Shown here: piece after piece, positions 2,112 to 38,347 of the stretch
Position numbering within the stretch: position 1 is the first letter of the stretch
Layout: each line of letters opens with the position of its first letter
Origin: a virus
Virus genome (UHGV): UHGV-0159603
Length of the DNA stretch: 42,855 bases
Reading direction: 5' to 3' (one strand)
Notes under the pieces: model-generated
Told to the model about the DNA's origin: nothing
The model's database searches: none
The model's input: the letters and a program-made list of their open reading frames with translations, nothing else
Translations under genes and position numbers: made by a program

Positions 2112-2758
2112 GCAGCACGCTCCCGTCCCTGGTTGTCTGTTGGTGACAGCGGAGCATTGCTGAATGCATTTGTTAATCCGCCAATATCCAACGCGTATCC
2201 AGGGTGTAGTTGCACTGCCGGGTCTTCGCACTGATTACCCCAAACATCGAAGCCATGAGACGTCTGGCGGGCGAACAGTTCAATGCGAGAAACATCGCCT
2301 AATAATTGCACAAGTTTTTCACGAACGATATCTGGCTTTCTTGAATGCTCAAGCCGCGGTGCGGTAAATGACTGAACGATCCCTGCATTAATGCGCGTAG
2401 GTAGTTTTCCCTTTACCGCAAACAGGCAATCTTCACTATTGGCGCGAGTCATGTGTCCCATACCCATAACAAGTTTATCTGGTTGTCGACTACCACATTT
2501 TATCCACGTGAAGCCCTTCATCGTCATCAGACGGAATCCCCAGGCTTCAACAACTTTTAGTGCTTCGAGTGGTTGTGTTGGCACCCACCACATGGCCAAC
2601 AGACAGTTTTCATCGGCCAAATCCCACACGGGAAGGCGGCAGATATCCAGCACACTCATAACCGGATATTTAAAACCGGCACCGCGATTACCATCTGCGG
2701 CTTTGTCCCGGTATACCCAGGGTGGATCTGCATAGATTAGTGTGTATTTCTTAGTCAT
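2108..2758 (-). CDS. MT-A70 family N6-adenine DNA methyltransferase (orphan)
   Basis: YADPPW motif near N-terminus; start ATG 2758 (alternative GTG 2770). Confidence 0.8.
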
Positions 2759-3050
2759 AAACCACCCCACAACATCCTATGCCGCTATAGTCGCCACGGC
2801 GAAGGCCGTTACCTTTTGTGATACATTGGTCCCTGCGAACCGCGATCCTTGCACGTTCAACATCACCAGAAGCAACATCCATACACTGAAGCCAAAGGTG
2901 AGCGGCAATGCGGAACTGCCCTTTTTTCTCTCTTTCAATCGCGCGTTTTTCGATCTCTATCGCCGCAGGAGTAACGGCGACAATCTTTGACGGACTGCGC
3001 ATTGAAACCTTATTCATGTGATATTTTTCAAGTCGGCTTAACTTTCTCAC
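2751..3050 (-). CDS. Hypothetical small protein in leftward early operon
   Basis: ORF between AlpA-like gene and methyltransferase on same strand; start uncertain (GTG 3050 or internal ATG). Confidence 0.3.
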   Translation of the reverse strand: MRKLSRLEKYHMNKVSMRSPSKIVAVTPAAIEIEKRAIEREKKGQFRIAAHLWLQCMDVASGDVERARIAVRRDQCITKGNGLRRGDYSGIGCCGVVYD

Positions 3051-3159
3051 TTAATCCAACCCTCTCTGAAAATTAATGCCAGCAGATAAAGCCATGCTGA
3101 AACAGAGGCCAGGAATAAGTACCATCCTGACCATTTGCTCCAGTGCCTTAGCAGCGCAC

Positions 3160-3408
3160 TCATGCAGCGTTGCTCACGGGACGATATACACGTTGCTGAA
3201 CAGGAGGTTTTTTACCCTGGAACTCTGCCGGGCTTGCTGCCTGACGTTCATCAAGCCAACGCTCAACTTCGTCACGGTTCCATGCGCAGCGTTTGTCAGT
3301 GATATACCAGCGTTTAGGAAATTCCCCTGCGCGCTCCATACGGTCGATAGTGCTCCATGACAGTGGCACCACCGCCAGGAGTTCCTTCTTACCTAATGCA
3401 CCTTTCAT
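3160..3408 (-). CDS. AlpA-family DNA-binding protein (excisionase/transcriptional regulator)
   Basis: 82 aa, MerR/AlpA-like HTH pattern (LSWSTIDRMERAGEFPKRW...RDEVERWL); RBS AGAGAGG before ATG 3408. Confidence 0.7.
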   Translation of the reverse strand: MKGALGKKELLAVVPLSWSTIDRMERAGEFPKRWYITDKRCAWNRDEVERWLDERQAASPAEFQGKKPPVQQRVYRPVSNAA

Positions 3409-3430
3409 AAATACCTCTCTTGGTTGCAGT

Positions 3431-3449
3431 GCGGCGCGTGTGGCGCCGC
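3431..3449. promoter_or_regulatory. GC-rich inverted repeat GCGGCGC-GTGTG-GCGCCGC between bet and the AlpA-like gene
   Basis: Perfect 7-bp arms, no T-tract on either strand; possible protein-binding site or RNA structure. Confidence 0.3.
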
Positions 3450-3457
3450 GGTGGTGG

Positions 3458-4399
3458 TTACATAGATGTTTCGTTTAATTCTTCCCGACGAACGCTGTAA
3501 ACGTCGGTGGCTTTTGCCAGCAGTTCGTCATCATCTGAAAGTTTTTGTGCAATGTATTTGTAAGCCTTATCCAGTTCGGAGACAGTGCTGTAATTCATCG
3601 CTGCGCTGGTAAAGGCCATCAGCATTTCTTCTGGATCACGGCTATCCGCTTTACGAGTTTGCTCATCAGGCTTTTTCACTGGTTTAGCGTTGATCAGACT
3701 GTTCATTCCCGCAGCAGTGGTCGTTTGCGGAGTAATGTCTCGCTCAACGCGCGGTGCCGTTTCCTGTAACTCGTCTGGTGTGTAGACGCCCATGATTACG
3801 TCAGGACAGTGCAAGCGAGACCAGCGTTTTGTCGCAAGGTATGCGAGTTGTTGTTTCGGATCACTGGCCCAAAGTGTGGAGTTTCTTACCTGTGCTTGAG
3901 ACAGCATTAACTCAAGCACTCGAGGTTGATCCTCGCCCTTCATGGTTGCCCATACGCGAACACCGCAGCCTTCTTCGTCTTTTAGAGTCCAGCCTGGTGC
4001 GATATATGGATTGCCGTTTTTGGATGTTTTCTCAACAAACTTACCGATCACGCGTTCCCACGGCCCGAACCACTCGTAGTTGATGCGATCTTTTGTTGGC
4101 GACATCGTTGAGATAACTGCGTTTACTAATTGGGCTTCATAACCTAGCGTGCCGTTCACAACATGGGTTTTCTGAGCCACGGCAAACGGGTTCATTCCCC
4201 ACTGCGCAGCCTGCATTGCCACGGCCATGCAATCAGCTGGTTTCCCGGCGAGGTGCGCCGGTACCGTTACGCGGCTTTGCGCCATTACCTCGGCGAATTT
4301 CATCAGTTGGTTCAAGCCGTCTGGGCTGAAAATAGTTGCAGCAGTTCCAGCGATTGCTGTGTCTACTGGTGCGTTGATGTTTGCGATGTCGTTGCTCAT
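3458..4399 (-). CDS. bet: Single-strand annealing recombinase, lambda Bet (Red-beta) family
   Basis: C-terminal region resembles lambda Bet (PERDITP / ..RDITPQ, WSRLHCPD..); start refined to ATG 4399 with AGGA RBS and ATGA overlap with exonuclease. Confidence 0.7.
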   Translation of the reverse strand: MSNDIANINAPVDTAIAGTAATIFSPDGLNQLMKFAEVMAQSRVTVPAHLAGKPADCMAVAMQAAQWGMNPFAVAQKTHVVNGTLGYEAQLVNAVISTMSPTKDRINYEWFGPWERVIGKFVEKTSKNGNPYIAPGWTLKDEEGCGVRVWATMKGEDQPRVLELMLSQAQVRNSTLWASDPKQQLAYLATKRWSRLHCPDVIMGVYTPDELQETAPRVERDITPQTTTAAGMNSLINAKPVKKPDEQTRKADSRDPEEMLMAFTSAAMNYSTVSELDKAYKYIAQKLSDDDELLAKATDVYSVRREELNETSM

Positions 4400-5821: not shown

Positions 5822-6406
5822 TTATTGTTTGTTTTTTTCGTTCTGGTTGATGACAAATTCAATGTAACTTTCGATCTTTGCTTTCTCGGTTTCGGGTAAC
5901 AATGCGTAGCGCGAGCGGTCATAGTTGATAGTCGCAGGGTCGTGCGGGTGAATCAGTAATTCATAGCCATGACGCCCGAATGCGGATGCAACATTCTCCA
6001 GGGTGGAAATGGAAACGCTGACCTCATTGTTTAACAGGCGGCTGATTGTCACCTGGGCGACGCCGGATGCGCGGTGAAGTTTTCCCTGTGTTGAAAGGTC
6101 GCGGCTTTCGCTCATCCAGCGTTCCAGGTTGTGAGCCGCCAGCTGACCAATGTCGCTTGGTCCGACAGGCTGAAAACCCTCCTGAGAAAGCGAGCGATCG
6201 ATATCAAGCCAGTTACGTGGTTTATTGGCGACAGCTTCAATTTTTCGCGCAACCTGGTCGCCGATAACCTTCTTGCCAAGAGCCCAGCGGTTTACCAGAT
6301 TTGCCTGAGTTCCAAGTTTTTCAGCCATCCGCGTCTGAACACCATTGAATTCACGGTCGATCAAGTCGTTGAGATTTTGCCTGCGGACGTCCTGGATACT
6401 TTTCAT
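5822..6406 (-). CDS. Prophage repressor (CI-like), tandem HTH domains, no recognisable S24 peptidase autocleavage domain
   Basis: Two XRE-like HTH segments; divergent from Cro-like gene across an operator-rich 154-bp intergenic region; no GDSM-type serine motif. Confidence 0.6.
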   Translation of the reverse strand: MKSIQDVRRQNLNDLIDREFNGVQTRMAEKLGTQANLVNRWALGKKVIGDQVARKIEAVANKPRNWLDIDRSLSQEGFQPVGPSDIGQLAAHNLERWMSESRDLSTQGKLHRASGVAQVTISRLLNNEVSVSISTLENVASAFGRHGYELLIHPHDPATINYDRSRYALLPETEKAKIESYIEFVINQNEKNKQ

Positions 6407-6461: not shown

Positions 6462-6524
6462 TTACCCAACAGGTAAATGCACCTCATGGGTAACTATCCT
6501 TGATTTTTGTTACCTTATAGGTGA
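6462..6524. promoter_or_regulatory. Divergent promoter/operator region (OR-like) with three dyad sites: 6462..6476 TTACCCAACAGGTAA, 6479..6493 GCACCTCATGGGTAA, 6510..6524 TTACCTTATAGGTGA
   Basis: Three copies of the TTACC-N5-GGTAA dyad between divergent repressor and cro-like genes, mirroring lambdoid OR1-3. Confidence 0.65.
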
Positions 6525-19216: not shown

Positions 19217-19230
19217 GAGAGGAAATGACA

Positions 19231-20217
19231 ATGGCTGTTAAAGGCTTAACTGCGCTAACGCTGGCTGACTGGGGTAAGCGCGTCGATCCAAACGGGAAAG
19301 TCGATAAGATTATCGAGCTTCTCGGTCAAACTAACCCGATCCTTCAGGATATGCCTTTTGTCGAAGGGAACCTTCCTACCGGACACCGAACCACCATTCG
19401 TTCTGGTTTACCTTCAGCTACCTGGCGTTTGCTGAACTATGGCGTACAGCCAAGCAAATCAACCACAGTGCAGGTAACCGATTCCGTTGGCATGCTGGAA
19501 ACCTATGCTGAAGTCGATAAGTCACTGGCTGATCTGAACGGCAATACCGCTGAATTCCGCCTGTCTGAAGACCGCGCATTTATTGAAGCGATGAATCAGC
19601 AGATGGCGCAGACGCTGTTTTATGGTGATTCCAGCGTTAACCCTCAGCAGTTTATGGGACTGTCCTCCCGCTATTCCAGCCTGTCTGCGGGTAATGCTCA
19701 GAACATCATTGATGCTGGTGGCACGGGTACAGATAACACCTCAATCTGGTTAGTGGTGTGGGGCGAAAACACCGTGCATGGCATCTTCCCGAAAGGGAAG
19801 AAGGCTGGCATCCAGATGGAAGATAAAGGCCAGGTGACACTGGAAGATGCGAATGGCGGCAAGTACGAAGGCTACCGTACCCATTACAAATGGGACAACG
19901 GACTTGCTCTGCGTGACTGGCGTTATGTTGTTCGCATTGCAAACATCGATGTCAGCAATCTTTCAGAACCTTCTTCTGCCGCAAATATTGCGAAGTTGAT
20001 GGTTAAAGCACTGCATCGCATTCCAAACCGTGGCATGGGGCGTCCAGTGTTCTACATGAACCGCACTGTAGGCCAGGCTCTTGATCTGCAATCTCTGGAG
20101 AAAACATCTCTGGCGATCAGCGTAAAAGAGACAGAAGGCGAGTGGTGGACTTCATTCCGTGGTGTACCAATCCGTGAAACTGATGCGCTTCTGGAAACAG
20201 AAGCCCGCGTGGTGTAA
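19231..20217 (+). CDS. Major capsid protein (putative)
   Basis: About 330 aa ORF directly after scaffold gene; alternative start 19225. Confidence 0.55.
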   Translation: MAVKGLTALTLADWGKRVDPNGKVDKIIELLGQTNPILQDMPFVEGNLPTGHRTTIRSGLPSATWRLLNYGVQPSKSTTVQVTDSVGMLETYAEVDKSLADLNGNTAEFRLSEDRAFIEAMNQQMAQTLFYGDSSVNPQQFMGLSSRYSSLSAGNAQNIIDAGGTGTDNTSIWLVVWGENTVHGIFPKGKKAGIQMEDKGQVTLEDANGGKYEGYRTHYKWDNGLALRDWRYVVRIANIDVSNLSEPSSAANIAKLMVKALHRIPNRGMGRPVFYMNRTVGQALDLQSLEKTSLAISVKETEGEWWTSFRGVPIRETDALLETEARVV

Positions 20218-20233
20218 CGCCTGTTATTAACCT

Positions 20234-20268: not shown

Positions 20269-20706
20269 ATGATCACCGACAAACTGTTGATGTTCTCCGA
20301 AGCTCAGGCGGTTACGAATACCGCGGCTTCTACTGACGTAATCGATCTCGGTCCAATTGACGGAAAACGTCGTGATATCGGCGTGGGTTACCCGCTTGAG
20401 TTTTGGGCGCTGGTTAACACAGCCGCCGCGGCAAGCGGTGATGCAACTGTAAACATCCAGTTGCAGACGAGTGAGAATAACAGCTCATGGACCACTATTT
20501 ATGATAGTGGCGCACTGGCAAAGACCGCCCTGACAGCAGGTAAACGAGTTGTTTCTGCAAAGGTGCCTGCCGGTGTTCAGCGATATCTGCGTGTTAACTA
20601 CTCCGTCGCAACTGGCCCACTAACGGCTGGCGAATTCACTGCTGGTATCAGTCTTGATGTTGATGCCAATACGCCGTATCCGATCCGCTCAAAAGTAACT
20701 GGTTAA
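20269..20706 (+). CDS. Hypothetical virion protein (possible minor capsid/decoration)
   Basis: Position within head module; RBS GGAGAAAG. Confidence 0.4.
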   Translation: MITDKLLMFSEAQAVTNTAASTDVIDLGPIDGKRRDIGVGYPLEFWALVNTAAAASGDATVNIQLQTSENNSSWTTIYDSGALAKTALTAGKRVVSAKVPAGVQRYLRVNYSVATGPLTAGEFTAGISLDVDANTPYPIRSKVTG

Positions 20707-33018: not shown

Positions 33019-33885
33019 CTATTCTTTTTTGCTATTTCTTTGATATATATTTCTTCCATTTTTGGTAACACGAATAACGTGCCCCCTGGATTCTACTTTG
33101 TTATTTGTTGCTTTATATACTTCAAAATCAAACCATGATATATAACTTATTTCGTCAATAGACACCATGATCTCAAGTCCTGGCACTTTCTTTCTGCTAA
33201 TTCCTCTTATTGCTGCAGTCCGCTTGACCTGTATTTCTCCTGGATAAGCATTAGTGAATGTGACAGATAAGTTGTCTTTGTTCCTGTATCCTGACATTAA
33301 AGGAACAAAAGATATGTGCTGATGCGGAGCCTGATTTTCCGTTGGTTCACCAGAACCATTTATTATTCCAACATACACTTTGTTTGATGATAAAGTAATC
33401 AGCATTGGTCGTTTAGGATCCGATTCAATAGCATCAAGCAATAGTAAGTCTAAAGAACCTTGCGAGTAAGTTTTTCGCAGTACTCTGGCCTTCATTGCCT
33501 CTGTTTTTTGCTCGTAAATATCACGTTTATAAAAACAACCAAGAAGAAAATCTTTCACCCACACAACAGACACATAACACAAAGAGAAGCAAATGGATGT
33601 GGCTGAGAGAAGAAGCAGCCACATGTAAATTCTATCTGTTTCTGGTTTTGACGTTACATTAAAAGTTTCCACCATATCGTGAACTAGGTGAAAATCAGGA
33701 TATTTATATTTTATAAATGCGGCAATTATTACCGAAGCAACAAGGCAATATGTACCTAATGCAGCTACTTTCATATAAAGAAGCTGGCCTTCATGTCGGT
33801 ATAAACGGAAATAATGATACTGGTTAGCGGTTATCATAATATAACCACTAACCAGAATGGGGATAATTAGAAGAGCTAACAACAC
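33019..33885 (-). CDS. AT-rich moron: membrane protein with N-terminal TM helices and roughly 170-aa C-terminal soluble domain, unknown function
   Basis: About 35% GC versus about 50% surroundings; opposite strand to virion genes; start GTG 33885 or ATG 33837. Confidence 0.55.
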   Translation of the reverse strand: MLLALLIIPILVSGYIMITANQYHYFRLYRHEGQLLYMKVAALGTYCLVASVIIAAFIKYKYPDFHLVHDMVETFNVTSKPETDRIYMWLLLLSATSICFSLCYVSVVWVKDFLLGCFYKRDIYEQKTEAMKARVLRKTYSQGSLDLLLLDAIESDPKRPMLITLSSNKVYVGIINGSGEPTENQAPHQHISFVPLMSGYRNKDNLSVTFTNAYPGEIQVKRTAAIRGISRKKVPGLEIMVSIDEISYISWFDFEVYKATNNKVESRGHVIRVTKNGRNIYQRNSKKE

Positions 33886-34094
33886 TATTTTCTGACAGTG
33901 GCAAGATCCTGTTTAACGATTGCAGCAGCGAGACGACGCATCTCCTTAACCTCAGGAAGCTCAGAAATTTGCTGTGATGAGATATACACACCACCACGCT
34001 TGTTAACCTGCGCTGACGCCGGAACTTCTGCATTTTTTGCCTGAGGGCTGGGTGCATTATCCCTCGTTTTTGTACGAGCGAACCAAAATCCCAT
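33885..34094 (-). CDS. Small hypothetical protein (69 aa) upstream of and overlapping the membrane-protein gene
   Basis: GGAGGAG RBS before ATG 34094; stop overlaps downstream GTG by 1 nt. Confidence 0.5.
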   Translation of the reverse strand: MGFWFARTKTRDNAPSPQAKNAEVPASAQVNKRGGVYISSQQISELPEVKEMRRLAAAIVKQDLATVRK

Positions 34095-34120
34095 ATCTCC
34101 TCCTCATGTAAACACATGGT

Positions 34121-34135
34121 TTACCTTTAAGGTAA
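34121..34135. promoter_or_regulatory. Dyad site TTACCTTTAAGGTAA upstream of the 69-aa/membrane-protein operon
   Basis: TTACC-N5-GGTAA family, 27 nt upstream of ATG 34094. Confidence 0.45.
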
Positions 34136-34183
34136 TAGTACGCTATTCACCCCCGGTCTGCAATCTGTACAGAATTATTTAAA

Positions 34184-34199
34184 GGCACATCCATGTGCC
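34184..34199 (-). terminator. Hairpin GGCACAT-CC-ATGTGCC downstream of Bro-N gene
   Basis: 9 nt after stop, followed by A/T-rich run on minus strand. Confidence 0.4.
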
Positions 34200-34207
34200 G
34201 CCGCCCG

Positions 34208-34918
34208 TCAGAAGAACCCTGCCTTGTCATTGATGTACTCTGCGTGTGTCTGGATATCACGCAGGCATTTGCTCACACCGACGATGTAGCAGAACATGGT
34301 GGTCAGCTCCGCCGCCGCGCCCGATACGTCGTGCCCGTCGTCCTGTAACTGGTTCAGCAGATTCATCAGCAGTGAGTTCTCCGTCAGGCCGAGAACACCA
34401 GACGGAGAATGAATCAGACTGCGGTAGCCGGGCTTCAGTGGGGCGCTGTAGGTTTTGTTCTCTATCTTCATTGCCTGCATCACTGCTGATGCTGTGGCGT
34501 TGGCTACCTGGTCGGCAACCATCTTTATGCGTTCTTCCTGCGGGAGCGAGTTTTTAATGTAACTTCCGGTGCGGCGGATCTGAGGAAGAACCTCACCTGT
34601 AACCCATTTACGAAAGCGATAGGGGATAGTGCCTGGTGTCACCGCATCGCGGCAGCGGAGGATCAGTGTGTAGAGGCCTGACTCGGAGATGATGTTGATC
34701 TCTTTTACTCGGCTGTCAAAAATTGCACGATGTTCATGCCCTATGTTGAACATAGACCTTTCATCATCATCCAGTTTTTCAAGTGCTTGAGTGACGTTTT
34801 GGATACGCAGCGCACTACAAACGTCTTGGGCTACAAACCATGGTTGGCCATCAATAATGATGGAACGGATAGGGTTAACAGATTCAAATTTGAAGATGGC
34901 AGTTTGAGCATTAGCCAT
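34208..34918 (-). CDS. Bro-N domain protein (prophage antirepressor-like)
   Basis: N-terminal Bro-N pattern (FESVNPIRSIIIDGQPWFVAQDVCSAL...); C-terminal about 70 aa paralogous to the 35234..35491 product. Confidence 0.65.
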   Translation of the reverse strand: MANAQTAIFKFESVNPIRSIIIDGQPWFVAQDVCSALRIQNVTQALEKLDDDERSMFNIGHEHRAIFDSRVKEINIISESGLYTLILRCRDAVTPGTIPYRFRKWVTGEVLPQIRRTGSYIKNSLPQEERIKMVADQVANATASAVMQAMKIENKTYSAPLKPGYRSLIHSPSGVLGLTENSLLMNLLNQLQDDGHDVSGAAAELTTMFCYIVGVSKCLRDIQTHAEYINDKAGFF

Positions 34919-35073
34919 GGTGGTTATCTCCACTTAGTGATTTTAATCACCACCGCAACGCCAATTACTGGTGGTGAACTGGACAAGGTTGGCGTACCGG
35001 CCTAAGTGGTACCGGCGTCCTTTCGGACCCCTGCCCAGCCCACCATAATTCGGATATAGCTGTGCTTAACGCA

Positions 35074-35097
35074 TAAAAAAACCACGTCTGGCGTGGT
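35074..35097 (-). terminator. Rho-independent terminator after the 85-aa gene
   Basis: ACCACG-TCTGG-CGTGGT hairpin followed by T7-8 on minus strand. Confidence 0.55.
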
Positions 35098-35130
35098 ATG
35101 CGCCACTTAGTAACTCGGGACGCCAATCCC

Positions 35131-35152
35131 GGCACTGGATTTTGCCAGTGCC
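35131..35152. other. Stable hairpin/palindrome GGCACTGG-ATTTTG-CCAGTGCC in the 300-bp leader upstream of the Bro-N gene
   Basis: Perfect 8-bp arms, no T-tract. Confidence 0.3.
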
Positions 35153-35187
35153 CGATTACTATGGCACAAGAGGAGTGCGATGTAAAT

Positions 35188-35202
35188 TTACCGCAAAGGT
35201 AA
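35188..35202. promoter_or_regulatory. Dyad site TTACCGCAAAGGTAA
   Basis: TTACC-N5-GGTAA family, in leader region upstream of Bro-N gene. Confidence 0.4.
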
Positions 35203-35233
35203 ATATAAGCACTCCACTTGGTAATTGCAAACC

Positions 35234-35491
35234 TTATCTGGTTTGTTTTCGTAATTGTTCGGCACAATAGTCGAGATGTGTTTGCAGATCCCGCATAGAC
35301 ATCTGTGAGCTGGTGACGTAGTTAATCAGTGCAGTCAGTTCGGCAAGTGGGCCATCGACATTAAATCCATCCTTATCGAGCTCCCGGAGTAATTTCATCA
35401 AGTGCGATCCCTCCACCAGTGATCTGACGCCTCCCGGCGTGTGAATCCTTTCGGTAAATCCGTCTTCCAGTGGATAGTGATACTGCTGCAT
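35234..35491 (-). CDS. Small protein (85 aa) paralogous to Bro-N protein C-terminal domain; candidate SOS-inducible antirepressor
   Basis: Alignable with C-terminus of 34208..34918 product (RIHTPGGVRSLVEGSHLMKLL vs SLIHSPSGVLGLTENSLLMNLL; MRDLQTH vs LRDIQTH); ATG 35491 with GGAGAAG RBS; LexA box 22 nt upstream. Confidence 0.6.
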   Translation of the reverse strand: MQQYHYPLEDGFTERIHTPGGVRSLVEGSHLMKLLRELDKDGFNVDGPLAELTALINYVTSSQMSMRDLQTHLDYCAEQLRKQTR

Positions 35492-35511
35492 CTTATCTTC
35501 TCCATGCAATA

Positions 35512-35529
35512 ACTGTATAAATATACAGT
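35512..35529. promoter_or_regulatory. LexA (SOS) box ACTGTATAAATATACAGT
   Basis: Matches CTGT-N8-ACAG consensus with AT-rich spacer; sits over the promoter of the 85-aa gene. Confidence 0.7.
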
Positions 35530-35567
35530 ATCAAATAATTTGTTTGCTATCCAGCACGTTTTGCGAA

Positions 35568-35582
35568 TCACCTGAAAGGTAA
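35568..35582. promoter_or_regulatory. Dyad site TCACCTGAAAGGTAA in divergent region before tailspike gene
   Basis: TTACC-N5-GGTAA family. Confidence 0.4.
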
Positions 35583-35686
35583 TATCTGTTCGTATTTATG
35601 GGTTATCTATCCATATGTGGTTTTTCAGGTAATAGAATAACCGGATATGCGGCGCAACGGGTGCTGCGACTATCTGGAGATTTAAC

Positions 35687-38347
35687 ATGACGGTCTCAAC
35701 CGAAGTTGACCACAACGAATACACCGGTAACGGCGTTACGACATCATTCCCTTATACATTCAGGGTTTTCAATAAATCTGATCTGGTAGTGCAGGTGATT
35801 GATCTTGACGAAAATATCACTGTACTGGCTCTTGATACTGATTACACGGTTACCGGCGCGGGAGGGTATAACGGTGGTAATGTAATTCTGTCGAAGGCGT
35901 TGGCTAACGGTTATCAGATTTCTATATCTCGAGAGCTACCGGTTACGCAGGAAACTGATCTGCGCAATCAGGGTAAGTTCTTTGCGGAAGTGCATGAGGA
36001 TGCTTTTGATAAGTTGACTATGCTAATCCAGAAATGCTTTAGTAAGCTTCGCCTGGCTCTTATGCGTCCATCATTTGTTGCTAATTATTATGATGCTCTT
36101 AATTATTACATCAGAAATGTAAGAGAGCCCTCTCAGCCAAGTGATGCTACAAATAAAAATTATGTTGATACGCTTGCAACTAACAATTTGAATAAAACTC
36201 TAAGAGTCCCAGAGGGATATATCCCAACTCTTCCTGTTGCAAATGTAAGAAAGAACAAAATTGTAGCAATGGATAATAGTGGTAATCCAATGATGGTTTT
36301 ACCTGAAAGCGGAAGTGCTGCTGATGTAATGATTGAATTAGCTAAGCCAACCGGTGCTGGGCTTATTGGGTTTAATGATATTACAGTATCTAAACAGCTT
36401 GAAATATTATTAAGCGAGTCGGCCCCTCTATTTCAGGGTCATATAAAAACCCTCGATTATTGGGCTGCCAAGATGCATGGCGGGGAAACCGTCAGAATTA
36501 CTTGCTATGGCGACTCGACAACAGACGGTAACGGTTCTACCGGGTGGACAGCAAACCCAACAACGCCGGTTTCTGGATTTGCATGGGATACCGCTCCCGT
36601 AGCAAATAGCGATCATAACTCAGAAGCGCCAAACGCATGGCCGGTTAAATTGCAAACCATTCTGCGGCAGTATCACCGCAACAATAATATCAGCGTTTAC
36701 AATGCCGGCTATAGTGGTCAGCAGATGCAGAATGGCTGGGCCAATTATTATTTCGAAAAAGCTGTGCTGCAAAACCCATACATCCCATCAAATCCGCAGA
36801 TTGTAATTATTGGTTTTGGGCTGAACGACATCACTGACGCAGGAAACAAGATCACTCAGCATATTGCTCAGACAATCGAGGTAATGAAAAAAGTTGTGGC
36901 GGCTGGCGCAACTCCGGTTTTGGTTACGTGTGACGCAAACTGGCGTTCATATAATGGCTGGAATTCCGGATCTACGGGTCGTGACAATGAAGAGGCAGCA
37001 GCGCAGATTGACGCTGCTAAAAAATACATGTCAGAAGTTCTTGGCGTCTCGATTATCGATCAGGACTTCATGCAAAAAAAATGGATGTCGAAAAATTCCG
37101 ACTATTCGAATCAGTACCAGTTACAACCAGACGGACTGCACTGGGGCGACACCGGTCACTCGATGAAGGCGGCATTTGTGGCACAGTCGTTTATGCCTGA
37201 CATTCTTCGCTGCTACGGTACAGATATTGAGCGCATCTGCTGGATGGACAGCAGAATGCGCTATGCCAAGAATTACACTTCAAGCTGGGTTCCCACCTCA
37301 GGCGAAGAGGGTTACCGTTATTCGAGATTCCCACGCATCTGGTATATCCAGGCTGCAGATTATGCAGGCAGCGAAGTCATCTTTGACTTTTTTGTTTGGA
37401 GTGAAGGCAACCAGGACTCATTGCTCTACCGTAACTTTGGCAACAGCAATATTGGTTCAGCTTACGCTGCCGAGCAACTTCCTCGCGTGAGGGTTTTCTC
37501 TCTCGGATCCACGACTGCATATTATGACAAAGAGCTACCGGATACCGGGGAGGATGAAGCATATATAAATGCCACCGATCGCCCCTTCTATCTGACAAAG
37601 CTCCGCTACGGACTTAACCGTATCCAGCTAATTGCGCCATCGACGAGCGGGGTCGGGGCGTTCTGGGGCGGCTGGTTTGAGTTCAATCCATTCTGGAAAG
37701 CCAAAGCCACGTTTGGTTACGTGAACAACTACGGCGCGCCAAACTATGTGCAGGTGAATGCGCTGGAGAAAACTGGTCCCCTCGATTTCCGGTTTGAGGC
37801 GGATACGGCGAATAACCGCGTGGCGTTTATGAACCCTGAAATGTTTGACGGAACGAACTGTGCTGATATCGGGCAGGTTGGTGATAAGGTCGAAATACTG
37901 GTTGAAGGTTTCTTCGATACCGATACGGGTTTCCTGTTCTTCGGCGGTAAATCCCTGAACCGTAATTCAGGCTCGACGGATAATAACCAGGAGGACAACT
38001 GCCTGCTCCTGTATGCCACATCGAAAACGTTTAACCTGCTCCAGTTGCGCTACCCATATCAAAGCTCTGCACCATACCCTCAAATCCAGACCGGTATTGA
38101 TGATGTTTACAGCGCGACGGACAGGGCTCGCAAGTTCCTTATTCGCTGTGAAAAGACTTCGCCGACAACGCAGACCATTAAGGTCTACGACGGGTGGGAG
38201 ACTATCGACACCCCTGTCCTGAACTATAAGGGAGACTGGATGCAGGGTAAGTTCTGCGGAGGTGGGATTATTGGTGGAGTTTACGCAACGAGAAACATTG
38301 CCAGGACGGTACGCGTCAGCCAACTATTAATTAGAAAATTTAAGTAG
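35687..38347 (+). CDS. Tail fiber/tailspike with T7 gp17-like N-terminal adaptor and SGNH/GDSL esterase domain
   Basis: N-terminus resembles T7 tail-fiber N-domain; GDS block (CYGDSTTDG), GLND block and DGLHWGD (DxxH) block of SGNH hydrolases. Confidence 0.7.
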   Translation: MTVSTEVDHNEYTGNGVTTSFPYTFRVFNKSDLVVQVIDLDENITVLALDTDYTVTGAGGYNGGNVILSKALANGYQISISRELPVTQETDLRNQGKFFAEVHEDAFDKLTMLIQKCFSKLRLALMRPSFVANYYDALNYYIRNVREPSQPSDATNKNYVDTLATNNLNKTLRVPEGYIPTLPVANVRKNKIVAMDNSGNPMMVLPESGSAADVMIELAKPTGAGLIGFNDITVSKQLEILLSESAPLFQGHIKTLDYWAAKMHGGETVRITCYGDSTTDGNGSTGWTANPTTPVSGFAWDTAPVANSDHNSEAPNAWPVKLQTILRQYHRNNNISVYNAGYSGQQMQNGWANYYFEKAVLQNPYIPSNPQIVIIGFGLNDITDAGNKITQHIAQTIEVMKKVVAAGATPVLVTCDANWRSYNGWNSGSTGRDNEEAAAQIDAAKKYMSEVLGVSIIDQDFMQKKWMSKNSDYSNQYQLQPDGLHWGDTGHSMKAAFVAQSFMPDILRCYGTDIERICWMDSRMRYAKNYTSSWVPTSGEEGYRYSRFPRIWYIQAADYAGSEVIFDFFVWSEGNQDSLLYRNFGNSNIGSAYAAEQLPRVRVFSLGSTTAYYDKELPDTGEDEAYINATDRPFYLTKLRYGLNRIQLIAPSTSGVGAFWGGWFEFNPFWKAKATFGYVNNYGAPNYVQVNALEKTGPLDFRFEADTANNRVAFMNPEMFDGTNCADIGQVGDKVEILVEGFFDTDTGFLFFGGKSLNRNSGSTDNNQEDNCLLLYATSKTFNLLQLRYPYQSSAPYPQIQTGIDDVYSATDRARKFLIRCEKTSPTTQTIKVYDGWETIDTPVLNYKGDWMQGKFCGGGIIGGVYATRNIARTVRVSQLLIRKFK

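Follow-up and report, generated by a model that had tools for sequence, protein, structure and literature searches.

The window analysed here, 42,855 nucleotides of viral DNA, is that of a phiV10/epsilon15-like coliphage, and the locus under study very probably serves this epsilon15/phiV10-like temperate podophage as its antirepression arm, with two antirepressor genes under different controls. We consider it highly probable that these genes form two modules, one an SOS-induced antirepressor (Ant) of the SPC32H type and the other an RNA-gated antirepressor that joins a Bro-N domain to an Ant-like domain (Bro-N::Ant), the contacts of LexA, of Ant with the repressor Rep and of the RNAs being deduced from sequence. 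The case for the first module rests on orthology to the SPC32H system, which has been characterised experimentally and structurally, while the second is suggested by RNA-family matches, covariation and the position of an operator.

A small antirepressor of the SPC32H type

The small antirepressor gene and its control sites are as follows:
35234..35491, minus strand: ant, small antirepressor, SPC32H Ant orthologue (5D50_E match, 88% identity, phrog_450)
35513..35528: putative LexA (SOS) box CTGT-N8-ACAG, CTGTATAAATATACAG, from consensus match and conserved position
35568..35582: Rep operator-like inverted repeat TCACC-N5-GGTAA with one mismatch, in the control region shared by the divergent ant and tailspike genes, on the far side of the ant promoter from ant (upstream)

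Compared with known antirepressors, a check proposed in the initial annotation, the 85-aa product of ant matched chain E of PDB 5D50 ('Anti-repressor protein', SPC32H) over residues 2-84 with E=5.5e-47, and BLASTP put its identity to the Ant protein of Salmonella phage SPC32H at 88%. No Pfam family was found for it above threshold, and a sub-threshold match to DUF724 was disregarded. A scan of 1.84 billion proteins returned only 44 cluster representatives and no more distant known family; judged by sequence, the Ant family is small. We placed the start of ant at the ATG at 35491, which is preceded by GGAG, and rejected a TTG at 35509 since the ATG has a Shine-Dalgarno sequence and fits the N-terminus of SPC32H Ant.

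The near-consensus LexA box that had been reported at the ant promoter (35512-35529) was confirmed at 35513-35528, where the minus-strand 20-mer TACTGTATATTTATACAGTT agrees with 18 of the 20 positions of the consensus TACTGTATATATATACAGTA. It tentatively overlaps the probable -10 hexamer of ant, TATATT (35525..35520, minus strand); the ant promoter was not called by a consensus promoter scan, and its -35 and -10 elements were assigned manually. The motif CTGT-N8-ACAG occurs twice in the window against 0.56 expected, a count reached by 11 of 100 shuffles. We took the second occurrence (20232), with its GC-rich spacer and its location inside a structural-gene span (19225..20217 / 20269..20706), to be chance. 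The box at ant has an AT-rich spacer, its distance to the ant start codon is identical in SPC32H, epsilon15, Tyrion and TL-2011b, and its position stays fixed even though identity in the flanks of these phages is only about 78%; phiV10 has a one-base variant. At the place equal to that of the operator-like repeat upstream, the motif in epsilon15 carries the annotation 'repressor' binding site.

Likeness to SPC32H extends beyond the protein. Both phages have a full-length Rep homologue without an autocleavage domain alongside orthologous Ant proteins, the LexA box lies equally far from the ant start codon, and the TTACC-N5-GGTAA operator motif is shared, being annotated so in the close relative epsilon15. 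Comparison of the window's open reading frames with SPC32H and epsilon15 places ant outside the immunity region, on the reverse strand beside the tailspike gene and divergent from it. This site between the ejection-protein and tailspike genes had been presented as a novelty, which it is not, as SPC32H ant (on the opposite strand between a large internal-protein gene and the tailspike gene) and its epsilon15 homologue gp19 sit likewise. The differences are that Rep of SPC32H is only 41% identical and that in SPC32H and epsilon15 ant stands alone, without the isrK-C4-Bro-N::Ant unit described below.

For SPC32H, reviews credit Kim and Ryu (2013, J Virol) with the finding that LexA-controlled Ant inactivates the repressor by protein-protein binding, and the Ant tetramer is described as binding two Rep dimers and breaking the Rep tetramer. 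Crystal structures of SPC32H Rep/Ant are available (PDB 5D4Z, 5D50). By analogy to this orthologous system, the earlier interpretation of the small gene as a LexA-derepressed antirepressor acting against a non-autocleaving repressor is supported, and the small-Ant switch is a rediscovery, a switch whose working had been solved before and which appears here in a phage of E. coli. Kim and Ryu reportedly described SPC32H Ant as a distinct class of antirepressor. A parallel with 186 Tum and the Gifsy phages had also been drawn, and this stands for the logic of LexA and antirepressor, but the closest known system is SPC32H Rep/Ant. Like ant, the genes for 186 Tum, N15 AntC and Gifsy GfoA/GfhA/GftA encode LexA-repressed small proteins that bind an uncleaved repressor, and they lie outside the immunity region (Lemire et al., 2011; PMC3121763); this likeness is functional only.

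The repressor and its putative operators

The following features belong to the repressor:
5822..6406, minus strand: rep, 194-aa repressor and SPC32H Rep homologue, having two HTH regions but lacking an S24 domain
6462..6476 and 6510..6524: two putative Rep operators in the rep/cro-like divergent region, from a motif scan
34121..34135: perfect putative Rep operator, 3' of the Bro-N gene and upstream of the genes at 33885..34094 and 33019..33885
35188..35202: perfect Rep operator TTACC-N5-GGTAA, a putative binding site, abutting the -35 hexamer of PisrK

Rep is the presumed target of both antirepressors. Pfam gave an HTH_3 match at aa 106-147, a weaker HTH-like match at aa 21-60 and no match to Peptidase_S24, in agreement with the tandem HTH domains and missing S24 motif ascribed to this protein before. 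It matched the 'Repressor' chain of 5D50 (5D50_A) over its full length (residues 1-190, E=1.4e-41), and its identity is 99.5% to Rep of phiV10/ZX5 and 41% to that of SPC32H. With Rep only 41% but Ant 88% identical to the SPC32H counterparts, conservation of the Ant-Rep interface is an assumption. The scan counted 15 sites of the operator motif TTACC-N5-GGTAA in the window, where 0.69 would be expected.

A probable second antirepressor gene behind two RNA genes

Downstream of ant we found the following features:
35158..35186, minus strand: PisrK, a sequence-predicted sigma-70-like promoter, TTTACA-17-CATAGT, with TG upstream of the -10
35075..35151, minus strand: isrK sRNA, equivalent of the a1/b1 element of the C4 system (RF01394, 67.2 bits against a gathering threshold of 50)
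34967..35050, minus strand: C4 antisense RNA (RF01695, 66 bits against 45, full-length model match)
34919..34966, minus strand: Bro-N gene leader with two C4 targets predicted from pairing, AUUGGCGU (34965..34958) and CUAAGUGG (34937..34930)
34208..34918, minus strand: large antirepressor, 236 aa, with a Bro-N domain and a C-terminal Ant-like domain (phrog_130, 'anti-repressor Ant')
34583..34870, minus strand: Bro-N domain (PF02498), aa 17-112 (71.5 bits against 25.6, E=9.5e-20)
34226..34456, minus strand: C-terminal Ant-like domain, aa 155-231 (5D50_E, E=2.2e-13)
33885..34094 and 33019..33885, minus strand: genes downstream of the Bro-N gene, function unassigned

The alignment of the 85-aa product with the last 70 or so residues of the Bro-N protein had been noted at the outset, and BLASTP bore it out, with 32 of 74 residues identical (43%) in a gapless match to residues 155-228 of 236 (E=3e-16). 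This paralogy spans the whole Ant fold. The Bro-N paralog, first taken for a duplicated domain, is more than that; the isrK and C4 genes and the repressor operators indicate a second antirepressor under separate control. In phiv142-3 the same C-terminal domain follows an AntA N-domain in place of Bro-N, a swap suggesting that the effector is the Ant-like domain, the part held constant, and across Tyrion and the Klebsiella phage this domain diverges together with Rep. The large protein is 81% identical to ORF4 of the sister phage vB_EcoP_ZX5 and near-identical to it from about aa 75 to the end. Overexpression of ORF4 from a plasmid, as a GST fusion, took the ZX5 prophage titre from 1e9 to 1e6 (PMC9782041). 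The Bro-N gene of phiV10 is frameshifted, and the second module is therefore dispensable for a viable temperate phage. PADLOC gave no match for the Bro-N protein or the two genes downstream of it. At 43% identity to Ant, the Ant-like domain may have another partner.

The gap between ant and the Bro-N gene is 315 bp long and holds two minus-strand RNA genes found with Rfam, isrK and C4, which the initial annotation had overlooked. The isrK RNA has two hairpins; its tail CUAAGUGG (35110..35103) is single-stranded, and its intrinsic terminator comprises 35097..35081 and a U-run. This RNA overlaps a match to c4-a1b1 (RF03163) that scored 44.3 bits, just below the gathering threshold of 46.7. Loop B of C4 is UACCACUUAGG (35011..35001), and a single-stranded ACGCCAA lies at 34995..34989. 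Folding of the region gave z=-4.9 and recovered the C4 and isrK hairpins. The predicted start of PisrK coincides with the 5' end of isrK (35151), a promoter-like pair was read by eye at the same distance before isrK in other loci, and ZX5, TL-2011b, Tyrion and the Klebsiella phage all conserve the block of operator and promoter. No intrinsic terminator was found in the stretch from ant to isrK. In TL-2011b that stretch is occupied by cargo genes on the opposite strand, a layout that marks the second module as a separable unit.

In the leader, CUAAGUGG overlaps the Shine-Dalgarno sequence GGAG (34931..34928) and AUUGGCGU lies 21 nt upstream of CUAAGUGG. A GTG at 34933 was rejected as the start of the Bro-N gene, the ATG at 34918 having a Shine-Dalgarno sequence. 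Translational coupling through a leader ORF, in the style of P1 icd or Gifsy-1 orf45, was also rejected because no ORF reaches the Bro-N start; the sole ORF across C4 ends at 34965, 47 nt short of the ATG.

Covariation of C4 with its predicted targets

The C4 RNA is complementary to isrK through both of its single-stranded segments, and this complementarity covaries across loci. We compared pairing in 8 related loci with 8 different loop-B sequences. The C4 loop paired best with its own isrK tail in all 8 and with its own leader in 7 of the 8, at mean energies of -11.8 kcal/mol (own) against -3.5 (foreign) for the tail and -11.4 against -5.2 for the leader. For the window the computed duplex of C4 with its own leader target has -12.6 kcal/mol. 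The second contact, ACGCCAA/UUGGCGU, is changed in all three partners in Tyrion. Among coliphages with Rep at least 98% identical there are two classes of C4 loop, with matching targets within each class: class I (CCACTTAG) in the window, HEMP4 and phiv142-3, and class II (CCTTTTAG) in phiV10, TL-2011b, ZX5, PH444 and Phi05_2388B.

From these matches we infer that the Bro-N::Ant gene is an RNA-gated second antirepressor of the P1-immI / Gifsy-1-IsrK type.

A two-module model of induction

We propose that in the lysogen host LexA would occupy the box overlapping the ant promoter, and that upon DNA damage its removal would allow the 85-aa Ant to be made. Ant would then bind the non-autocleaving Rep and dismantle the DNA-binding Rep tetramer, freeing operators scattered over the genome. 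The isrK-C4-broN::ant unit would have its own promoter, and since PisrK abuts a Rep operator, this second module should switch on only when Rep is absent or inactivated. The C4 loop and 3' single strand would pair with the Bro-N::Ant leader across the Shine-Dalgarno sequence and block translation, while IsrK, carrying both target sequences, would titrate C4 away as a decoy; synthesis of the large antirepressor should therefore begin only above a threshold ratio of IsrK to C4. Its C-terminal Ant-like domain would act on Rep, either reinforcing lytic commitment or defeating immunity on superinfection.

As no intrinsic terminator separates ant from isrK, SOS-driven ant transcripts probably end at the isrK terminator and so carry the decoy, which would link the two modules. 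A wider scheme for phiV10-like coliphages, to which we give tentative credence at most, combines bipartite immunity like that of P1/P7, built on the SPC32H switch, with delivery of the C4 decoy by the SOS-induced ant transcript. Phages with one and the same Rep and SOS-controlled small Ant would be made heteroimmune by C4 loops of at least two specificity classes. If true, DNA damage would also lift the translational block on the large antirepressor and so lock induction by feed-forward.

Other roles for the large protein

It is possible, if on balance doubtful, that the Bro-N::Ant unit is an anti-immunity device of the immI type (P1/P7, P22) that works outside SOS induction. The product of an incoming genome would inactivate the Rep already in the cell, except where the resident prophage supplied a matching C4, and specificity of the C4 loop would form a second layer of immunity. 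The architecture of P1 immI is indeed matched here, with an operator-controlled promoter, a1/b1, C4 and targets at the antirepressor operon's ribosome-binding site, and the two loop classes with matching targets among coliphages of at least 98% identical Rep parallel P1/P7, where C1 is common to both and c4 specificity different. However, resident Rep should silence the incoming PisrK as well, through the abutting operator, so that a second, constitutive promoter would be needed; none like P51b of P1 was identified for the isrK unit. This role is compatible with the two-module account.

We think it unlikely that the large protein spares its own Rep and acts on the repressors of other resident prophages, as in Gifsy/Fels-like crosstalk. 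Antirepressors that hit non-cognate repressors are documented (PMC3121763), and the Ant-like domain shares no more than 43% of its residues with the cognate small Ant, but overexpression of ORF4 alters lysogeny of ZX5 itself (PMC9782041), and the C-terminal domain diverges along with Rep in Tyrion and the Klebsiella phage. Very improbable, in our judgement, is a large protein that does not bind Rep and instead modulates or sequesters the small Ant by hetero-oligomerisation; paralogy over the whole fold and the tetrameric state of Ant would suit it, but the ZX5 result is pro-lytic, the opposite of an anti-induction effect (PMC9782041). That the LexA box and the protein similarity are chance or functionless relics is barely credible: two CTGT-N8-ACAG matches are insignificant by themselves, but this reading is already contradicted by conservation, namely the 18/20 box with its AT-rich spacer and kept position, the Ant/Bro-N similarity and the occurrence of the module in 534 genomes out of 5426 complete ones of E. 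coli.

Comparison with other RNA-controlled antirepressors

Returning to the two-module account, its second module resembles P1/P7 immI in having a C4 family RNA on the antirepressor strand, an element of a1/b1 type ahead of that RNA, a pair of complementary targets at the antirepressor operon's ribosome-binding site, an operator of the primary repressor at the promoter, and RNA specificity classes among phages with a common primary repressor. It differs in that an icd-like leader ORF is absent and the target overlaps the antirepressor gene's own Shine-Dalgarno sequence, in that a fusion of Bro-N with an Ant-like domain takes the place of P1 Ant, and in that the phage is a podovirus with an extra LexA-controlled small antirepressor upstream. 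The immI region of P1/P7 is said, after Citron and Schuster in 1990, to comprise c4 antisense RNA, icd and ant1/2, with C1 common to both phages and c4 specificity differing. P22 immI (mnt-arc-ant) is an antirepressor region between the ejection-protein and tailspike genes of a temperate podovirus, controlled by the Arc and Mnt proteins and sar RNA, with neither LexA nor C4. In VT2-Sakai orf34 overlaps the start of its ant, unlike in the window.

In the isrK-orf45-anrP region of Gifsy-1, too, an sRNA of the isrK family has a promoter of its own and a terminator that leaks; next come an RNA of roughly 80 nt (processed STnc1160 there, a C4 RNA gene here) and an antirepressor gene whose translation depends on RNA, apparently so in the window. 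PisrK of Gifsy-1 has been demonstrated experimentally, and the action of IsrK was explained by structure switching around upstream orf45 with translational coupling and not by titration of a C4-like RNA; the complementarity of IsrK and STnc1160 was noted by the same authors (Hershko-Shalev et al., 2016; PMC4825925). In the window an orf45-type coupling ORF is absent, a Rep operator and a paralogous gene under LexA control lie ahead of the unit, and the locus adjoins the tailspike gene, whereas that of Gifsy-1 lies near a Q-like antiterminator. With no coupling ORF reaching the Bro-N start, the Gifsy-1 switching model and the C4-titration model are not interchangeable. We offer a simple reading in which IsrK would be the a1/b1 decoy of C4 RNA.

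ZX5 is a sister phage with the same locus, in which ORF4, named 'anti-repressor' (Li et al., 2022; PMC9782041), is 81% and Rep 99.5% identical to those of the window, and overexpression of ORF4 lowers lysogeny; its C4 loop is of the other class. The ZX5 paper makes no mention of the small Ant, LexA, SPC32H or RNAs (PMC9782041).

Distribution and significance

Of the genomes with module matches (about 10% of the complete E. coli genomes searched), 200 cover at least 80% of the module, and the carriers include phiV10-type phages of O157 strains. RefSeq labels the 85-aa protein 'hypothetical' and its partner only 'BRO-N domain-containing'. The value of the small-Ant part is mainly one of annotation, as the SPC32H assignment predicts the induction route of these prophages. 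The RNA-gated paralog would bring together within one 1.4-kb locus SPC32H Ant, P1 immI and Gifsy-1 IsrK, which have been studied apart, and it predicts that phages sharing a repressor fall into classes of heteroimmunity. We found no description of Ant paired with an RNA-gated paralog in a literature search that most subscription journals lay outside of; the tandem pairing of SOS-Ant and RNA-gated circuits appears undescribed, but incremental. ORFs annotated 'Ash family protein' or 'hypothetical' across the gap between ant and the Bro-N gene are RNA genes read as protein-coding.

An SPC32H-type antirepressor under a LexA box

The window is a temperate coliphage of epsilon15/phiV10-like type (Uetakevirus). 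Its antirepressor locus lies on the minus strand, with the last of the large internal-protein genes on one side and the tailspike gene, which is transcribed divergently, on the other; over 33900-35700, identity is 98% with HEMP4 and 92-95% with TL-2011b, ZX5 and phiV10. Along the minus strand the order is a CTGT-N8-ACAG box, an 85-aa ORF (ant), a 315-bp gap and the gene for a 236-aa Bro-N protein.

Features of the antirepressor locus, with the repressor gene
35513-35528: CTGT-N8-ACAG (LexA) box, 18/20 consensus match
35234..35491, minus strand: ant, 85-aa ORF, SPC32H Ant match
35075-35151, minus strand: isrK (Rfam, 67.2 bits, gathering 50)
34967-35050, minus strand: C4 antisense RNA (Rfam, 66 bits, gathering 45)
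34208..34918, minus strand: Bro-N protein gene, 236 aa
5822..6406, minus strand: repressor gene rep, HTH matches and a match to the 'Repressor' chain of PDB 5D50
35687..38347, plus strand: tailspike gene, 886 aa

The initial annotation proposed that a LexA-derepressed antirepressor induces this prophage. The LexA box on which it relied, TACTGTATATTTATACAGTT, was borne out at 18 of 20 consensus positions; the window contains only one other CTGT-N8-ACAG, situated at 20232 among structural-gene ORFs, and its spacer is GC-rich. The distance from box to start codon is equal in SPC32H, epsilon15, Tyrion and TL-2011b, even though flanking sequences are just ~78% identical. The 85-aa protein is 88% identical to Ant of SPC32H, a Salmonella phage with a Rep/Ant system, and matches the 'Anti-repressor protein' chain of 5D50 (E=5.5e-47), while the rep product matches the 'Repressor' chain over residues 1-190 (E=1.4e-41). 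As had been noted, Rep shows matches to HTH domains and none to the S24 peptidase. It is 99.5% identical to the Rep of phiV10 and ZX5 and 41% identical to that of SPC32H; compared with SPC32H, the antirepressor is far better conserved than its presumed partner and target. The reverse-strand location beside the tailspike gene, earlier regarded as peculiar, has precedents: SPC32H carries ant there, on the opposite strand and adjoining the tailspike gene, and epsilon15 has the homologous gp19 in the corresponding position. In reviews, LexA-controlled Ant and inactivation of the repressor by protein-protein interaction are credited to Kim and Ryu 2013. Because of the Ant/Rep matches, the slot, the conserved LexA box and these reviews, the proposed mechanism is correct yet not new, and belongs to the known, structurally solved SPC32H system. 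The module is common: of 5426 complete E. coli genomes, 534 have matches to it, and their annotation of the small protein is 'hypothetical'.

The large protein carries an Ant-like domain

In the large protein (Bro-N::Ant), the Bro-N domain occupies residues 17-112. The suspected paralogy of its C-terminus with the 85-aa protein held up, with an ungapped alignment over residues 155-228 (43% identity, E=3e-16), and the C-terminal domain also matches 5D50 Ant (E=2.2e-13). At full length the protein has matches among the PHROG antirepressor families. A scan of 1.84 billion proteins gave 44 Ant-domain representatives at 50% clustering, so the family is small, and the domain is found either free, at 85-90 aa, or C-terminal in Bro-N, AntA and Rha-domain proteins. 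Phage phiv142-3, whose Rep and C4 loop class are those of the window, has AntA instead of Bro-N before a near-identical Ant-like C-terminal domain (local 1583-2239). Since this domain is the constant part while the N-terminal domain is swapped, we infer that it is the effector.

ORF4 of ZX5 shares 81% identity with the large protein as a whole, and beyond roughly residue 75 the two are near-identical. With ORF4 overexpressed, prophage titre fell from 1e9 to 1e6 and repressor transcription also went down (Li et al., 2022, PMC9782041); that paper does not mention LexA, SPC32H, the small Ant or the RNAs. TL-2011b, ZX5, HEMP4, Tyrion and the window all have an intact Bro-N::Ant gene, and in the type phage phiV10 a frameshift divides the gene into p23 (194 aa) and p22 (29 aa; local 3180-3859). 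In Klebsiella phage ST11-OXA245phi3.2 (local 2045-2305 and 2620-3309) the small Ant has DGHDVSGAAAE, a motif typical of the large paralog, rather than DGFNVDGPLAE, which suggests that the paralogs have exchanged sequence by recombination or gene conversion.

isrK and C4 RNAs covary with the Bro-N leader

The initial annotation described the box, genes and repressor correctly and missed two RNA genes in the 315-bp gap, where Rfam matches place isrK and a C4 antisense RNA on the minus strand. isrK overlaps a match to the c4-a1b1 family ('a1, b1 targets of C4') that falls slightly below the gathering score (44.3 against 46.7 bits), and the 242-nt stretch with the RNA genes folds into the expected hairpins (z=-4.9). 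By our reading of the sequence, C4 loop B, CCACUUAG, has its complement, CUAAGUGG, in the single-stranded tail of isrK. A further complement of the loop is CUAAGUGG in the Bro-N leader; this target overlaps the Shine-Dalgarno GGAG, whose end is 9 nt upstream of the ATG. A second contact pairs the C4 single strand ACGCCAA with UUGGCGU, present in isrK hairpin 2 and in the Bro-N leader.

We took homologous units from phiV10, TL-2011b, VT2-Sakai, Tyrion, a Klebsiella prophage, a Yersinia phage, Salmonella phage 118970_sal3 and Hafnia phage yong2. The isrK and C4 pair precedes an antirepressor-like gene in all eight, and is absent from SPC32H. Loop B is distinct in each lineage, and both targets change along with it. 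With RNAduplex, the loop's best partner was its own isrK tail in 8/8 loci (mean -11.8 vs -3.5 kcal/mol for foreign tails) and its own leader in 7/8 (-11.4 vs -5.2 kcal/mol); in Tyrion the second contact is altered on all three partners (GACCAA / UUGGUC). Because loop B and both targets covary across loci, there is strong comparative evidence for P1-type C4 control, made up of an upstream decoy, the antisense RNA and a target at the ribosome-binding site.

The RNA part was matched by 257 phage records, mostly Stx phages. In the nin region of VT2-Sakai (local 2482-3467), orf34 and ant come after the isrK-C4 pair, as they do in 197 further Stx-phage records. VT2-Sakai orf34 ('hypothetical protein', local 2563-2736), the ZX5 'ash family protein' (local 1727-1840) and a 100-aa window ORF (34965..35267, minus strand) are translations of the isrK/C4 RNA genes and have the peptide ELWWA in common.

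Predicted Rep control of the second unit

At 35186..35158 is a sigma-70-like isrK promoter, PisrK (TTTACA-17-CATAGT, with TG preceding the -10), its predicted start being the isrK 5' end; by eye, other loci have comparable hexamers at equal distance. The window has 15 copies of the inverted repeat TTACC-N5-GGTAA against 0.69 expected (one mismatch allowed), dispersed across early, late and accessory regions; in epsilon15 this motif, beside gp19, is annotated as the site bound by the lysogeny repressor.

Start positions of the 15-bp TTACC-N5-GGTAA sites
136, 5688, 5750, 6462, 6510, 8793, 8855, 12683, 12701, 15603, 16220, 34121, 35188, 35568, 38549

The rep/cro-like divergent region has two of the copies; one is upstream of the ant promoter (35568-35582), one comes after the Bro-N gene (34121-34135), and a perfect copy (35188-35202) abuts the PisrK -35. 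Given this distribution, the isrK-C4-Bro-N unit is most likely Rep-repressed. C1 operators of P1 are likewise dispersed, and the predicted repression parallels that of P1 immI by C1.

The ant and isrK-C4-Bro-N modules are separable transcription units. In TL-2011b (local 2683-3411) ant is separated from the operator-PisrK-isrK block by an opposite-strand gene for a 242-aa Cys-rich protein, and in one E. coli prophage (MS20654) a YafO-family toxin gene is annotated inside the matched stretch. The window has no intrinsic terminator between ant and isrK, so the isrK terminator is probably where SOS-driven transcripts end.

Downstream of the Bro-N gene, behind the Rep operator, are minus-strand genes for a 288-aa protein with a hydrophobic N-terminus (33019..33885, phrog_3630) and a 69-aa protein (33885..34094, phrog_5739), neither matched in Pfam or PADLOC. 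Other genes fill this slot in TL-2011b and ZX5.

A two-arm model

By orthology, LexA keeps ant off, and DNA damage releases Ant to inactivate the non-cleavable Rep. Rep loss would then open PisrK. C4 would block translation of the large antirepressor and IsrK would titrate C4; past a threshold, the large antirepressor would be made and act on Rep via its Ant-like domain. This second arm may reinforce induction or may be an anti-immunity device on superinfection. Among coliphages whose Rep is at least 98% identical, two classes of C4 loop occur, and in each class the targets match the loop, a pattern that recalls the heteroimmunity of P1 and P7.

The isrK-C4-Bro-N unit also matches the Gifsy-1 isrK-orf45-anrP locus (Hershko-Shalev et al., 2016, PMC4825925). 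One point sets the window apart from that locus: its antirepressor gene has no coupled leader ORF, and the sole ORF spanning C4 ends 47 nt before the ATG. A LexA-controlled Ant in tandem with a paralogous fusion under Rep and C4/IsrK control was not found described in the searchable literature; the increment is moderate because each half is already known.

Other features

The N-terminus of the tailspike is of the epsilon15/phiV10 type, and a GDSL/SGNH esterase domain occupies aa 272-493, which suggests that the protein destroys its receptor as an O-antigen deacetylase-type enzyme rather than as a glycanase. A tRNA-Arg gene (anticodon TCT) lies within the phage at 15821-15897 on the minus strand, with the surrounding ORFs on the opposite strand.
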